Positions 25,500-41,096 of a stretch of DNA of 64,000 nucleotides are shown here, one piece after another. How positions within the stretch are numbered: position 1 is the stretch's first letter; every line of letters starts with the position of its first letter. The position numbers and the translations under genes are program-made. Location: positions 107,302-171,301 of the forward strand of contig CAZNUP010000002.1 in assembly GCA_964576435.1 (NCBI GenBank), read 5' to 3'. Under the pieces are notes generated by a model. That model saw nothing but the letters and a program-made list of their open reading frames with translations. It made no database searches and was not told the DNA's origin. This DNA comes from an uncultured Gammaproteobacteria bacterium (GTDB lineage: Bacteria > Patescibacteriota > Microgenomatia > JAMCZE01).

Positions 25500-25613
25500 A
25501 TGCAGAGGTTTACCAACAAATTCGAACGTGTTTTCGTAGAAAATGTCTTTATGTTGGCTCGCTCCGCTCGCCTCTATCTTAGTGTCGACCCGCTGCGGCG
25601 GGGGCCTCCGCTT
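25500..25613 (+). repeat. Repeat A, left arm of inverted-repeat pair A/A' (about 113 bp, GC-rich)
   Basis: The reverse complement at 27045..27156 matches with a handful of mismatches and one 2-nt indel, as read by eye. Confidence 0.6.
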
Positions 25614-25763
25614 TAACGAATTTTTTGCGCGCGCGACACAGCACAGGAGCTTCCCGGCCAATTTGGGCGAAATTGGCCGCAATCGGCCGGAATGGTGGTA
25701 TTCGGCCGCTTGGGTTCATTGTGTGATTGCACAACAGGGATTTTGGTTTAGTGAAGTCATGTT

Positions 25764-25813
25764 AGCATAGTGCTATGCTGTAATGCGAGTATTCGTTCCA
25801 CAAATGTTATAAT
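25764..25813 (+). promoter_or_regulatory. Perfect palindrome AGCATAGtgCTATGCT (25764-25779), a candidate operator, plus an extended -10 TGtTATAAT (25805-25813) 9 nt before the ATG of ORF 25823
   Basis: Read directly from the sequence. Upstream are GC-rich hairpins: CGGCCAATTTgggcgAAATTGGCCG and CGGCCGGAAT...ATTCGGCCG. Confidence 0.35.
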
Positions 25814-25822
25814 TGAAGCGTT

Positions 25823-26227
25823 ATGGCAACACCTGAAGAAAAGCTACTTAATTGGGCTAGGGAAAGGGAAGCTAATCCTCCTTCTCCATCTGTTCCAAAA
25901 CCTCCACTTGGTCAAGCCAAGGACGTTTTGATGCATTTTTTGGGAGGCTCGATTGGTTCCAGGAAGGTTACTTTAAGCGAAGGAAAGCCAACTTCAAAGA
26001 CTGCGGATGAGTTGAGGACAGAATTAAAAGAGGCACTTGGAGAATTTGACACGACAACTTTACCGGAAGATCGAGCTAGACAATATCAACAGATTGTTGG
26101 AGAACTAGATGGAAATCTGGATGATTTAACTCATTTGAATTTGATTGTAAAACACTATCACAATTTTGCCGCAGATCGTCCCCTGGATGCTCCTGAAATT
26201 AAAAAAGTGCGAAGAAAGCAAAAATAA
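25823..26227 (+). CDS. Hypothetical protein (134 aa), cargo of the A/A' segment
   Basis: ORF track. No family recognised by eye. Confidence 0.4.
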   Translation: MATPEEKLLNWAREREANPPSPSVPKPPLGQAKDVLMHFLGGSIGSRKVTLSEGKPTSKTADELRTELKEALGEFDTTTLPEDRARQYQQIVGELDGNLDDLTHLNLIVKHYHNFAADRPLDAPEIKKVRRKQK

Positions 26228-26237
26228 TATGTATTTC

Positions 26238-26903
26238 TCATGTTGTCACTTTTCTAGCGCGGTATGCTTCAATTCGTTTTGGAAGATCGTATAAATATTC
26301 GAGCAAGTAGTCTAGAAATTCAGTAATGTCGTTTGCGTCTTTAGGGTCGACACCGGAATCATTTGGGTCAGAGTGAGTTGCCTCATTCCCCAACAATCTA
26401 ACTTCATTGGACCAGTCAATCATTAGTGGGGGTAATAAACCCTGTTTTCCTAGATATTCAATTTCCTCCAAAAGATTTGCGCCTTTTGCCTTTTTATCTC
26501 GAAGCGCTGATTGCATCGAACTACGTGCCATTACCGAAGCTGCATCCCAATTCTCGTCAGTGAGGGATTTATGAGCTTGTAGCCAGTTTCTGCCAACGGC
26601 CGGTGGCCAGTGATCGGGGGATTTCGTGTATTTTAATGGAAAAGGAAGGACGCGATAATCATGGAGACTGTGACTACCACTGTATTCGCTTGATGACCAT
26701 AACACCATCACATAGCCAGCACAATTGCCGCATTTTAATGTGTCAAAATTAAGAACCTTACGGTTATTTGATTTTTTCTTTTCAGAATGATGTGCTGTTG
26801 AAAAATTACCTCTTTCCCCACAGAATGCGCATTCAATTCGATATATTGCAAGCGAGTCACCGGATTCTCCAATATGTTCACCGAGATCCCACCAACTGTT
26901 CAT
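26238..26903 (-). CDS. Zinc-ribbon protein with a C-terminal DUF4145-like domain, cargo of the A/A' segment
   Basis: CAFCGERGNF...CGNCAGY Cys pairs at the N-terminus. C-terminal LLGNEATH...LLEYLYDLP fits the DUF4145 GNxxAH pattern as recalled. Confidence 0.45.
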   Translation of the reverse strand: MNSWWDLGEHIGESGDSLAIYRIECAFCGERGNFSTAHHSEKKKSNNRKVLNFDTLKCGNCAGYVMVLWSSSEYSGSHSLHDYRVLPFPLKYTKSPDHWPPAVGRNWLQAHKSLTDENWDAASVMARSSMQSALRDKKAKGANLLEEIEYLGKQGLLPPLMIDWSNEVRLLGNEATHSDPNDSGVDPKDANDITEFLDYLLEYLYDLPKRIEAYRARKVTT

Positions 26904-27044
26904 AGCGGCATTTTACCAGAATTTTTGTGTCGGTTTGTATTGTTTTGTCTTCTTGAAAACTTCTTGACTTAAGACGACACTGAAAAAAAATCGCGAAAAT
27001 TTTTGCGTTTTCTTTCACACACAGGATTCGAGCCGACCTTTTTC

Positions 27045-27156
27045 AAAGCGGAGGCCCGCCGCAGCGGGCCGACACTAAGATGACGGCGAGCGGAGCGAGC
27101 CAACATAAAGACATTTTCTACGAAAACACGTTCGAATTTGTTGGTAAACCTCTGCA
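27045..27156 (-). repeat. Repeat A', right arm, inverted copy of A. Similarity to the tRNA-Tyr locus copy extends left to about 27020.
   Basis: Reverse complement of 25500..25613. 27022-27038 cgagccgaccttttt is the reverse complement of aaaaaggtcggctcg found in B' and at 40878. Confidence 0.6.
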
Positions 27157-27257
27157 CAGAGAGACACAGACTCACAAGAAGGGGCGGCGATCCGCGCGCC
27201 CGCAACCGCGCGGAGCGCCGCAAAGGGCTGTTTCAAAACCGCGCTGAGCTGCCGATT
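27152..27257 (+). repeat. Repeat B, left arm of pair B/B'. It overlaps the end of A' by 5 nt (ctgca).
   Basis: ctgcacagagagacacagactcacaagaaggggcggcgatccgcgcgcccgcaaccgcgcggagcgccgcaaagggctgtttcaaaaccgcgctgagctgccgatt. Its reverse complement lies at 28712..28827. Confidence 0.6.
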
Positions 27258-27329
27258 AGAAAATTAAAAAGCAGGAAAGAAAACGCAAAAATTTATTTAG
27301 GAACAGGAAAGTTACTCAAAACTGCACAA

Positions 27330-28949
27330 ATGAAATATATTGGCTATTGCCGAAAATCAACAGACGAAAAAGACAGACAGGTTTTGTCGATTGACGCACA
27401 AATTGCAGAACTCAAAGAATTTGCTCAGCGTGAACGCTTAGATGTTGTGGATTTTGTTGTTGAGGCAAAGACTGCCAAAGAACCGGGCAGGGAAAAATTT
27501 GCCGAAGTCTTGAAAAGAATTGAAAAAGACGAAGCACAAGGTATCCTTAGCTGGCATCCAGACAGACTTGCAAGGAATTCCGTGGATGGTGGGAGAGTGA
27601 TCTATCTTTTGGACACCGGGAAACTTTTGGATCTCAAATTTCCTTCATTTTGGTTCCAGAACACCCCTCAAGGCAAATTCATGCTCGGAATGGCCTTCAA
27701 TCAGAGCAAATATTATGTGGATTCCTTATCTGAAAATGTCAAAAGGGGAATCAGACAAAAACTTCGGCAGGGAATTTGGCCCAAACAAGCGCCGCTTGGC
27801 TACAAAAACAATCCCAAGACTAAAGGAATTGACATTGACTCCGAAACTGCACCTGTTGTCAAAAGAGCTTTCGCTCTTTTTGCCCAAGGCAACAAATCTT
27901 TCACTGAAATTGCCGATTTTTTCTTGAAGCATGGGATCACAGGAAAAACCGGGAAGAGATTACATTTGTCCGAAACCAAGAGACTACTGGGGAAAACTTT
28001 CTATATTGGCCATTTCAAATTTGGTGGTGAGCTTTATCAAGGAAGCCATAAGTGTTTTATCTCAAAATCCACTTTTCAAAAAGTTCAAGAGAGGCTGAAG
28101 AAAATTGAGCGACCAAGAAGGAAAGGCCACAATTTTCCTCTCGTTGGAATCGCTAAGTGTGGAGAATGTGGTGGTGCAATAACTGCCGAATCTCATCCCA
28201 GATTCTATCCCCGAACGGGAAGAAAAGTGGATTTTGTCTATTACCGCTGCACGAAAAAATTTGGCACATGCTCTCAGCGCTACACTCCGGCAGTAGATTT
28301 TGAGTCACAACTTGAAGAGTTGTTGTTTTCTGCATCTCTGCCAAATTCCTGGCAGAAAAAATGGAAAGATTGGTTGGATCGGGATGAAAAACTGGCGAAA
28401 GAATCCGCAGAGAAAAACCTGGCTGGTTATCAAGTCAGGATTGCTGACTTAGACAAAAAACAAAATCTACTGCTAGATACTTTCTTAGAGGGGACAATTG
28501 ATGAGGGAATGTTCAAAACGAAAAAGAACGAAATGTTTGAGAGAAAACAGAAACTTGAAGAAGAACTTTTGCAAGTGAAAGCTAGTGGCGCAGGTTGGCT
28601 CGAACCAATGAAAGACTTCATGGAAACGGCTTCACAGCTGGAAAAAATCGCGCGCGCAAAAAATTCCAGCGAAGATTTGCGAAACTTCGCCAAAAAGGTC
28701 GGCTCGAACTACTTTTTACAGGATCAGCAGCTCAGCGCGGTTTTGAAACAGCCCTTTGCGGCGCTCCGCGCGGTTGCGGGCGCGCGGATCGCCGCCCCTT
28801 CTTGTGAGTCTGTGTCTCTCTGTGCAGGGGCGGAAAGAATCGAACTTTCGTTGCGGGTTTTGGAGACTCGCGTCCTACCACTGAACGACGCCCCTTTATC
28901 CTGTTATTTTATCATTTTTATATGTTGGTGGTATAATCTATTTGTTTAA
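27330..28949 (+). CDS. Large serine recombinase (resolvase/invertase N-domain, recombinase domain and zinc ribbon)
   Basis: MKYIGYCRKSTDEKDRQVLSIDAQ (catalytic Ser region). ...ILSWHPDRLARN. Zinc ribbon CGECGG...YYRC. The track ORF opens at 27138 (no upstream stop); the Met at 27330 is preferred. The last ~80 codons read through repeat B' and the antisense tRNA-Trp before the first stop at 28950. Confidence 0.8.
   Translation: MKYIGYCRKSTDEKDRQVLSIDAQIAELKEFAQRERLDVVDFVVEAKTAKEPGREKFAEVLKRIEKDEAQGILSWHPDRLARNSVDGGRVIYLLDTGKLLDLKFPSFWFQNTPQGKFMLGMAFNQSKYYVDSLSENVKRGIRQKLRQGIWPKQAPLGYKNNPKTKGIDIDSETAPVVKRAFALFAQGNKSFTEIADFFLKHGITGKTGKRLHLSETKRLLGKTFYIGHFKFGGELYQGSHKCFISKSTFQKVQERLKKIERPRRKGHNFPLVGIAKCGECGGAITAESHPRFYPRTGRKVDFVYYRCTKKFGTCSQRYTPAVDFESQLEELLFSASLPNSWQKKWKDWLDRDEKLAKESAEKNLAGYQVRIADLDKKQNLLLDTFLEGTIDEGMFKTKKNEMFERKQKLEEELLQVKASGAGWLEPMKDFMETASQLEKIARAKNSSEDLRNFAKKVGSNYFLQDQQLSAVLKQPFAALRAVAGARIAAPSCESVSLCAGAERIELSLRVLETRVLPLNDAPLSCYFIIFICWWYNLFV
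28712..28827 (-). repeat. Repeat B', inverted copy of B. It ends 3 nt inside the 3' end of tRNA-Trp.
   Basis: Reverse complement of 27152..27257 at about 95% identity by eye. Direct similarity to the tRNA-Tyr flank (40878..41011) starts at 28684. Confidence 0.6.
28825..28895 (-). tRNA. tRNA-Trp (anticodon CCA)
   Basis: Manual fold. Acceptor AGGGGCG/CGCCCCT. D-stem GTTC/GGAC. Anticodon loop CU-CCA-AA. T-arm GAAAG-TTCGATT-CTTTC. No encoded CCA. Confidence 0.8.
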
Positions 28950-40712: not shown

Positions 40713-40794
40713 ATTGTACGTTGATCATACCAAAACGTCAAAAATCGGTTCCAACGACGTTTTTAGTTTAAAGTCGAATCTAATTTCGTTGGTG

Positions 40795-41011
40795 CGGTGT
40801 TACGAACAAGCTAGAACGTTATGTCGCAGCTCGCTCCGCTCGCTGCTTTTATAGCGTCGGCCTGCGGTCTCTGCGTTGGAAAAGGTCGGCTCGATCTTCT
40901 TTTTGAAGGACCGGCAGCTAGCCGTCGAATATACTCAGGAATTCGCGGCGCTCCGAGCGGTTGCGGGCGCTTGGCGCGCCGCTACCAATTCTTCTGAAAA
41001 ATCCCTGTCTG
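40795..41011 (+). repeat. Degenerate composite copy (A-like + aaaaggtcggctcga + B'-like) of the tRNA-Trp element repeats, immediately 3' of tRNA-Tyr
   Basis: 40878-41011 aligns with 28684-28826, including gcggcgctccgAgcggttgcgggcgc versus ...cgCgcgg.... 40795-40877 aligns with repeat A (gctcgctccgctcgc...). Confidence 0.5.
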
Positions 41012-41096
41012 TGCTGAGACCTGGATTCGAACCAGGGTAGCTCTTTCGAGCACGAGATTTACAGTCTCGCTCATTTGTCCACTCTGATATCTCAGC
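41012..41096 (-). tRNA. tRNA-Tyr (anticodon GTA) with a long variable arm
   Basis: Manual fold. Acceptor GCTGAGA/TCTCAGC. Anticodon loop CU-GTA-AA. Variable arm GTGCTCGAAAGAGCTAC. T-arm CCTGG-TTCGAAT-CCAGG. Confidence 0.85.

Follow-up and report, generated by a model that had tools for sequence, protein, structure and literature searches.

A stop-less serine recombinase gene that appears to be completed across its own attachment site in a tRNA-targeting element of Patescibacteria

Among the large serine recombinases (LSRs), the closest described counterparts of the system analyzed here are the serine integrases of phages and the recombinases of small elements of the TnpX, TndX and Ccr kind. 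In serine integrases such as that of A118/LI, the motif bound by the zinc ribbon is shifted outward in attP relative to attB. Elements of the second kind form a circular intermediate, with expression in Tn4451 being coupled to the joined ends, and a recombination directionality factor (RDF) is not obligatory for TnpX- or Ccr-like enzymes. Here we analyze an LSR gene in a stretch of 64,000 nucleotides from a Microgenomatia genome (contig CAZNUP010000002.1, positions 107,302 to 171,301), the whole of which is denoted the window throughout. The gene belongs to an element of 3.3 kb (25501-28827) that is located directly after the 3' end of a tRNA-Trp gene. In none of the lineages compared does the recombinase gene have a stop codon of its own, and the right junction of the element accordingly falls inside its reading frame. 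The interpretation that we favor, with a probability of roughly 0.8, is that this gene encodes the LSR of a compact tRNA-targeting integrative element and is completed across the attachment site of that same element. The design recurs in hundreds of related elements, and a stop-less recombinase gene completed in this manner appears to be an unusual feature. We encountered no account of such elements in the literature that could be searched, and the family is apparently undescribed.

The recombinase and its open reading frame

The listed open reading frame (ORF) that contains the recombinase gene spans positions 27138..28949 of the window, which has a low G+C content (about 38%); the likely start codon is the ATG at 27330, the stop codon is at 28947-28949, and there is no in-frame stop before it. 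The encoded protein consists of a Resolvase domain (PF00239, residues 4-149, E = 3.2e-20), a Recombinase domain (PF07508, residues 172-258) and a zinc ribbon (Zn_ribbon_recom, PF13408, residues 270-330). The solved structure nearest to its profile is that of SPbeta SprA (E = 4.5e-23, aligned over positions 5-461). Residues R8, S10, C277, C280, C307 and C314 are invariant in 98 homologues, and both the catalytic and the zinc-binding residues are intact in the window copy. By all these features the gene is a predicted LSR of the integrase type. The AlphaFold model, for which an alignment of 98 sequences was the input, contains predicted coiled-coil helices at residues 339-386 and 392-419 with a predicted local distance difference test score (pLDDT) of ~87-95. 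Up to about residue 480, the pLDDT is 85-92, and a beta-hairpin (residues 458-472) and a short helix (474-479) both belong to this high-confidence part; values then drop to 53-59 (residues 481-500), with scores under 50 from residue 499 on. An exact look-up of the window recombinase sequence in public records gave no match.

The original prediction, made from the sequence of this locus, held that the recombinase frame stays open for about 80 codons through a GC-rich repeat and the opposite strand of tRNA-Trp. This is indeed the case: the frame traverses B', the right arm of a 108-nt inverted repeat with 98% identity (27149-27256 / 28723-28830), includes the peptide quoted at the time (...AVLKQPFAALRAVAGARIAAPSCESVSLCAGAERIELSLRVLETRVLPLNDAPL...) and then runs antisense to tRNA-Trp; B' begins 75 codons ahead of the stop, and the crossover core is located around codon 499. 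The openness of the frame exceeds chance: between +1300 and the end of the element, the recombinase frame is free of stops in 63 of 64 related loci, whereas the other two frames contain stops in 60 and 64 of the 64 loci, respectively. Across the last ~17 element-encoded codons, frame-0 stops are found in none of 54 distinct B' sequences, compared with 18 of the 54 in each other frame. The left arm B, upstream of the gene, served as a negative control and is not kept open, the recombinase frame being interrupted there in 38 of 48 loci; an N-terminal extension of the recombinase through this arm was rejected because of these stops. Prediction of intrinsic terminators gave none in B'.

The homologues are 505-545 residues long, cover 93-98% of the window LSR and share the segment FAKxVGSNFFLxxRQLSAxxKxGFAAL, past which they continue into, for example, GIEPS or RIELQPHGPQPRILPLNYTP, that is, into antisense tRNA. 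A conserved C-terminus running through this region in unrelated, repeat-free contexts, which the original prediction had envisaged as evidence to the contrary, was not observed: the C-terminus shared by the homologues extends through inner B', always in the same repeat-bearing context. Judging from the pLDDT, the first ~16 codons of B' encode ordinary folded protein, and only the part past about residue 480 is 'supplied' sequence. In the codon-position test, third positions account for 68% of the differences in the recombinase core, which indicates purifying selection on the core. The corresponding values are 41% in the region from c to d (Table 1), 46% in inner B' and 40% in outer B', where divergence is high. 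The very low divergence of the c-d region, without a third-position bias, points to constraint at the DNA level. The outer tail is unconserved as sequence yet never interrupted, and the simplest reading is that translation must reach a conserved end across the crossover.

Such an end becomes apparent when B' is joined in silico to X', the arm at the left end of the element, which corresponds to the attP form; a check of the frame after in-silico inversion of B/B' had been proposed in the original prediction. In most loci, the joined frame closes 10-15 codons beyond the crossover, usually at the TAG of the conserved GTTAGCTC, and encodes a conserved peptide, [NEL]V[YF]E[KQ]IRTxF[KR] (VYEKIRTxFK), the IRT of which is the pseudo-T-loop read in frame. 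Sequences read by eye show that the F and K/R of this tail are kept through differing codons (TTT/TTC and AAA/CGC/CGT, respectively) and the Arg through CGA/AGA, which suggests some protein-level constraint over the DNA site. In the attP form of the window element, TAG is replaced by TGG, which gives a longer tail of 25 codons (EVYQQIRTCFRRKCLYVGSLRSPSS). Tails of the integrated state consist of antisense tRNA (G[IFLV]EP...), and their stops lie 2-87 codons past the element. Public proteins with an exact X'-type tail also exist (P0030, P0084 and P0102; loci L082, L083 and L085), and in their contigs the gene is followed by B'/X'-A2' (a slash marks a junction here and below). When the last 62 residues of a homologue with an X'-type tail were used alone as the query of a protein search, just 22 short ORFs were returned. 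At the level of sequence, these comparative data support the earlier proposal of a recombinase C-terminus that varies with the recombination state and is provided by the attachment site and its inverted repeat (IR).

Some database homologues are longer. About 15% of the best homologues (P0001-P0018) are read-through fusions of 865-932 residues, which originate from insertion of a family element in the recombinase gene of another element at codon ~118-127. In L084 (342-6151) and in another fusion that was compared, the first frame continues into the second gene; L110 is also concerned. The intact gene in L097 contains a T-loop-like TCAAA 12 nt after the equivalent position, and the recombinase gene itself thus seems to hold a pseudo-target.

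Junctions, repeats and variant elements

The element in the window consists of X'-A2', c', two cargo ORFs, e, A1, A2-X/B, e' and the recombinase gene, with c, d and B' inside it (Table 1). Three junctions can be distinguished: S1, host/core/X'; S2, in inverted orientation, B'/core/X'; and S3, B'/core/tRNA'. This rule holds in the window and in each of about two dozen other loci with all three junctions readable; elsewhere the comparison was confined to S2 and S3. The junctions have a core of 2-9 nt in common (TGCAG in the window, in reverse complement at S2), and X' comes after B' in all further loci that extend far enough upstream. Junctions read by eye show that the core represents the last nucleotides of the tRNA (discriminator +/- CCA) and varies by lineage in step with the occupied tRNA. 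With these signatures, S1, S2 and S3 are a putative attL, an intact inverted attP-like site and a putative attR, respectively. Some elements of the family are lodged between adjacent tRNA genes of a cluster, which implies that the material between the arms is an insertion. The idea of two independent abutting transposons with terminal inverted repeats was also rejected, given that single cores are common to the three sites and that X is always found ahead of B.

Table 1. Coordinates of the element, its target gene and the related relic in the window
Feature	Coordinates	Strand	Remarks
Core TGCAG, left junction	25501..25505		attL-like; host left flank / core / X'; 5 nt common to internal and right sites
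Left arm X'-A2' (IR2-left)	25501..25614		pseudo-tRNA 3' end (AAATTCGAAC) and GC-rich hairpins
c'	25618..25636		inverted partner of c; -1712..-1694 vs +1318..+1336, 19 nt, 100%; pair in at least 15 loci
Cargo ORF, 134 residues	25823..26227	+	no Pfam match
Cargo ORF, 221 residues, DUF4145	26238..26903	-	PF13643, E = 3.8e-12
e	26997..27016		copy of family-invariant motif AAATTTTTGCGTTTT; inverted partner of e'; -333..-314 vs -55..-36, 100%
A1 (= d')	27027..27037	-	inverted copy of d (GTCGGCTCGAA); motif search
A2-X (IR2-right)	27045..27156		pseudo-T-loop GTTCGAAT at 27130-27137, 16 nt from position equivalent to tRNA discriminator
B, left arm of IR1	27149..27256		upstream of recombinase gene; GC palindrome inside
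Core CTGCA, internal site	27152..27156		intact, inverted attP-like X / core / B
e'	27275..27294		invariant motif AAAACGCAAAAATT; in recombinase leader
LSR ORF	27330..28949	+	539 codons as integrated; Resolvase, Recombinase and Zn ribbon domains
c	28648..28666	+	inside ORF, codes KIARAKN; inverted partner of c'
d	28698..28708	+	GTCGGCTCGAA; codes VGSN
B', right arm of IR1	28723..28827	+	last ~35 element-encoded codons (residues ~465-499)
Core TGCAG, right junction	28823..28827		attR-like; overlaps last nucleotides of tRNA-Trp
tRNA-Trp, CCA anticodon	28824..28895	-	intact; ARAGORN; Rfam 57.3 bits; predicted integration target
Host-encoded ORF tail	28828..28949	+	~40 codons antisense to tRNA-Trp and spacer, plus stop; pLDDT below 50 from residue 499
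Miniature relic X'-A2'-d-B'	40792..41014		223 nt; at 3' end of tRNA-Tyr; core GTGC at both ends
tRNA-Tyr	41011-41096	-	miniature relic at its 3' end

The X' arm always carries a T-loop-like motif, located 16-17 nt from the crossover, whereas a real T-loop lies at 12 nt. This offset, which amounts to +4 in 27 loci and to +5 in another 7, resembles the outward motif shift in the attP of the A118/LI integrase. The outer part of B' (the ~18 codons that follow the folded inner part) would be the P-type half-site of attR.

The repeat survey covered 82 recombinase genes, from 80 fetched loci and the window. IR1 (~103 nt) brackets the gene in 65 of the 82, with arms at about -155..-50 and +1392..+1497; within most loci the arms are 97-100% identical, while the recombinases of those loci are only ~50-58% identical to the window protein. 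The window IR1 includes a 101-nt stretch with 100% identity, and the palindrome in B covaries between loci. IR2 (75-120 nt) was detected in 30 loci; its right arm abuts the left arm of IR1, and its left arm lies 0.6-3.3 kb further upstream. In the window, the IR2 arms (25501-25602 vs 27055-27156) are 96% identical, and a second comparison gave 114 nt with 94.7% identity. The gene is bracketed by near-perfect inverted repeats because an intact inverted B'/X' copy (27045-27256) sits just upstream. Possible roles for this internal attP-like copy include a reserve site, an operator or a carrier of the native 3' end.

Several short motifs are shared across the family. The motif AAATTTTTGCGTTTT / AAAACGCAAAAATT, present in the window as e and e', is family-invariant and borders the cargo as well as the recombinase gene, and a weaker copy is present at c and c'; its alignment columns are invariant across loci, and covariation is seen in the extension. 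This pair looks like a second recombination or regulatory site. The recombinase-less elements end in motif e directly next to B'. The d motif has 4 matches in the window, against 0.39 expected, and A1 co-varies with d in individual loci, as judged from sequences read by eye. An additional conserved inverted motif, TTAATGGCCGC...GCGGCCATTTAAG, is located just left of e at the cargo boundary in many loci (L105, L137, L147, L150, L003, L028 and L084) and is absent from the window.

The GC-rich repeat in the recombinase frame had been noticed at the tRNA-Tyr locus of the window as well, and a diverged copy is found there (40880-40982), 75% identical to 28693-28795. It belongs to a miniature relic that contains neither recombinase nor cargo and reads, in frame 0, as a relic of the recombinase C-terminus (KVGSIFFLKDRQLAVEYTQEFAALRAVAGAWRAA). 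By its structure, this relic is the product that would be expected when a simple element deletes between its two direct d repeats.

A genome scan over representatives of different species identified at least 523 related loci, and the named taxa are Microgenomates-group Patescibacteria. In about 60 of the 80 fetched loci, which come from different genomes, antisense tRNA begins ~1490-1515 nt after the ATG (mostly +1489 to +1497). The elements sit behind at least 11 tRNA types (Pro, Trp, Lys, Leu, Glu, Val, Gln, Arg, Gly, Tyr and Ile), all of which are intact and recognized by ARAGORN, and the ORF stops inside or past the tRNA at varying positions. The cargo differs in almost every related locus, and examples include MFS and EamA transporters, CN-hydrolase, peptide deformylase, aldo-keto reductase, ABC1 kinase, EEP nuclease and reverse transcriptase. 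Genomes carry several copies each. Only 1 relative was found in IMG/VR, and an association with phages was rejected.

Apart from the composite arrangement of the window, several variant forms were observed. The simple element of L063 lacks inverted repeats and has the structure host/X'-A2'-d-e'-recombinase-c-d-B'/tRNA-Gly. A metagenome scan for e-B'-tRNA' detected many recombinase-less elements with the structure host/X'-A2'-c'-cargo-e-B'/tRNA' (L133, L137, L150 and L155) and, in L090, L097, L099 and L110, a flipped gene, in which the 5' end of the recombinase adjoins e-B'-tRNA'. The matching far side of the flip, where the gene reads into X'-A2'-A1'-e', is seen in L082 and L083; the latter is a 2.6-kb contig, both ends of which overlap B and A2 by 55 nt each, compatible with a circle that holds two inverted copies or with a flipped integrated copy. 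L084 is a tandem array in which the second element used the attR of the first, and it also contains a nested insertion in another recombinase gene near codon 118. Like the cargo turnover and the several copies per genome, the simple, recombinase-less, flipped, tandem and nested forms (the last two in L084 and L081) are signs of mobility.

Other contexts are less regular. In L157 (3400-5250), a recombinase module is located between two inverted copies of tRNA-Ile, with a repeat of 179 nt (98%) that consists of B and the whole tRNA; the module adjoins the 3' end of the 16S rRNA gene and represents an rRNA-spacer insertion with a duplicated or inverted tRNA. In the 122-kb contig of L081 (7400-7560), what follows B' on the right is not a tRNA but an X'-like pseudo-tRNA arm that belongs to another element, so that a tRNA mimic can itself serve as an integration target; a second family member lies behind tRNA-Lys in the same contig. 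ARAGORN also reports, in a tRNA cluster beside the element of L035 (5658-5733), a tRNA with the anticodon CTA, labelled tRNA-Pyl, which may be amber-suppressor-like or a miscall. A look-up with the HD protein encoded next to the window element yielded two same-strain contigs (L087 and L088; SRR14271336 and SRR14271332), both of which start exactly 31 nt inside B' (positions 1-31 of each), with neither an empty site nor an alternative junction seen. Breakage at the same point of B' indicates that such repeats fragment short-read assemblies of these genomes.

Proposed scenario and alternative explanations

Under the integrative-element interpretation, the LSR would recombine attP (B'/X') with the 3' end of a tRNA gene, which it would recognize through the T-arm; X' is an arm of the element in the likeness of a tRNA 3' end, its T-loop-like motif being displaced outward by 4-5 bp relative to a real tRNA. 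In the integrated state, the frame crosses the core TGCAG into host DNA and reads antisense tRNA-Trp to a fortuitous stop. Given the existence of simple, recombinase-less, flipped and tandem variants, the window element can be read as a module within a module plus a flip. Specifically, an autonomous recombinase module would have lodged at the conserved motif e of a cargo module from its own lineage, and the recombinase segment would have flipped across B and B', making the gene convergent with the tRNA and replacing its native tail by residues read from antisense tRNA. Recombinase activity in the integrated state is probably damped or altered by this swap of tails, by the change of orientation, or by both.

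Several points weigh against this interpretation. The selection that appears to keep the frame open acts on a tail whose outer-B' residues are not conserved as protein, and the conserved peptide encoded by X' coincides with a DNA site that is itself conserved, which puts part of its conservation at the DNA level. The attP-form stop of the window copy is displaced by 11 codons. All loci behind the open-frame counts and the other statistics are related and hence not independent, and the flipped examples are mostly on short or disrupted contigs. Neither an empty tRNA-Trp site nor an unambiguous circular junction was recovered for the window element, and no small gene that could be an RDF is conserved between the loci compared. 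Finally, the interpretation does not account for the 97-100% identity of the arms or for the function of the 200-bp internal inverted copy.

Part of the same evidence would fit an invertible-gene switch, in which B and B' are inversion sites of the Hin/Gin type, the gene toggles between two orientations with two C-termini, and the adjacency to tRNA genes is secondary. The ~103-nt inverted repeats with 97-100% identity that bracket 65 of the 82 recombinase genes are what such a switch calls for, the opposite orientation occurs in nature (L090, L097, L099 and L110, with the gene reading into X' in L082 and L083), and contigs often break inside B or B'. However, inversion leaves unexplained the core logic of the three junctions, the multiplicity of tRNA targets, the turnover of cargo and the existence of L063, which lacks the inverted repeats. 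Furthermore, a single orientation was found in every GTDB locus with an adjacent tRNA, and the protein, with ~510-540 residues, is of the large integrase type, not a small invertase. The sequence data examined contain no evidence that the recombinase itself catalyzes inversion. We regard a switch as an improbable primary function, and any flipping of the gene is secondary to the finding; inversion is more readily understood as a further layer superimposed on an integrative element, and homologous recombination may drive it.

Still less credible is a structured non-coding RNA, according to which the GC-rich repeats A2, X and B, closed by e and e', form a guide or regulatory RNA, and the overlap of B' with the frame is incidental. 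The GC-rich hairpins do covary between loci, and the leader folds to about -110 to -130 kcal/mol, with the sense strand being more stable in 30 of 38 loci. Yet Rfam scans, both at the gathering threshold and at E up to 1, match only tRNAs, mismatches in the stems show no wobble bias (G:T 3 vs A:C 5), and RNAalifold recovered only the stem of e and e' and the B palindrome. In addition, the pairs of long repeats interleave and do not nest, each repeat is present in both orientations, and near-perfect arms of 100 nt exceed the needs of RNA folding, while the open frame is left unexplained. A guide system of the IS110 bridge-RNA type was likewise rejected, given the lack of an Rfam match and of G:U bias and a recombinase that is a canonical LSR, not a DEDD/Tnp protein. 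Fold-back of single-stranded DNA, rebuilding a double-stranded attP from the inverted arms, was considered as an idea.

The fusion artefact that had been offered as the second option in the original prediction, namely, an old rearrangement or decay that removed the true stop and left a 75-codon read-through extension in a dead gene, is effectively refuted by the comparative data: the tail past residue 499 is antisense tRNA with a pLDDT below 50, outer B' lacks conservation of the protein type and the attP-form stop is displaced in the window, all as an artefact would have it, but the frame is open to the end of the element in 63 of 64 loci as opposed to stops in 60-64 of the 64 in the other frames, the arrangement is kept in more than 60 loci behind at least 11 tRNA types, with a near-constant distance from gene to tRNA across ~60 loci of 11 tRNA types, and the core is under purifying selection with its catalytic and zinc-binding residues all intact.

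The integrative element that we favor might, more tentatively, be one part of a modular mobile-element system of Microgenomates-group Patescibacteria, combining a tRNA-mimic attP, mobilization of cargo modules and a stop-less gene as a built-in switch; we consider this extended reading a possibility that is rather doubtful as a whole. A minimal recombinase module of ~1.8 kb would integrate behind many tRNAs and mobilize recombinase-less modules with the same arms, and it may nest inside cargo modules at the second conserved site (AAAACGCAAAAATT). Only a junction of B' with X', as present in the free form or in the 'unflipped' orientation, would give rise to the native peptide VYEKIRTxFK; in this orientation, the gene would also be downstream of, and co-oriented with, the tRNA gene. 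A flip or an integration would then swap the tail and set the gene against tRNA transcription, which might provide on/off and directionality control in place of an RDF.

Implications and comparison with known systems

Few mobile elements have been described in Patescibacteria, and an abundant family with ordinary metabolic, transport and defense-type cargo may be one of the principal routes by which genes move through these reduced genomes. A serine integrase that recognizes the universal T-arm and chooses the tRNA by a short core would be a case of natural, semi-programmable, multi-target integration, which is of interest for genome engineering. A C-terminus written by the recombination state would be a simple design that couples the form of the enzyme to the state of the element. 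There is also a consequence for annotation: many database 'proteins' of 505-600 residues, as well as the fusions of 865-932 residues, have tails of antisense tRNA or of a second, disrupted recombinase.

The large serine integrases of phages and of integrative and conjugative elements (phiC31, Bxb1, A118/LI and SPbeta SprA) have the same domain order as the recombinases of this family, namely, catalytic domain, recombinase domain and zinc ribbon with a coiled coil. They likewise have an attP-like imperfect dyad of ~50 bp by the gene, P and B half-sites that differ by +4/5 nt in the outer motif, and hybrid attL and attR sites with a short shared core. Unlike these integrases, the family targets the 3' ends of many tRNA genes instead of one protein-coding gene, with an attP that mimics the T-arm; its gene is finished across the crossover, and an intact inverted copy of attP is kept in the integrated state. 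Moreover, the elements are only 1.7-5 kb long and carry neither phage or conjugation genes nor a recognizable RDF.

In TnpX (Tn4451/3), TndX (Tn5397) and CcrAB (SCCmec), as in this family, an LSR is the sole mobility gene of a small cargo element, and the recombinase shows weak NCBIfam matches to CcrB, CcrC and CcrA. In contrast to the family, those elements use short GA-type or rlmH targets and are not known to have tRNA mimicry, inverted repeats of 100 nt or a junction-spanning ORF. The archaeal integrases of the SSV1 type also have attP within the int gene, such that integration alters the reading frame; however, the SSV1 enzyme is a tyrosine recombinase, the gene of which is split in two large parts, whereas in the family the enzyme is a serine recombinase, and only the last ~13 codons are exchanged.

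The islands and tycheposons that target tRNA genes are similar in the use of tRNA 3' ends, in tandem accretion (as in L084), in the variable 'ordinary' cargo and in the small genomes of their hosts, but they employ mostly tyrosine integrases and duplicate the tRNA 3' end as a direct repeat, as opposed to the degenerate T-arm mimic in the attP of the family. Finally, the Hin/Gin/Pin segments and the yeast 2-micron plasmid share with the family a recombinase gene between inverted repeats, its occurrence in both orientations and arms that evolve in concert. Invertases of the Hin/Gin/Pin type are proteins of ~190 residues with a helix-turn-helix domain, ~26-bp sites and a Fis enhancer, a description that does not apply to recombinases of ~510-540 residues with repeats of ~103 nt. 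The arms of the family elements, unlike those of the Hin/Gin/Pin segments and the 2-micron plasmid, would be the halves of an integration site with extra palindromes, and they accompany a large recombinase of the integrase type.

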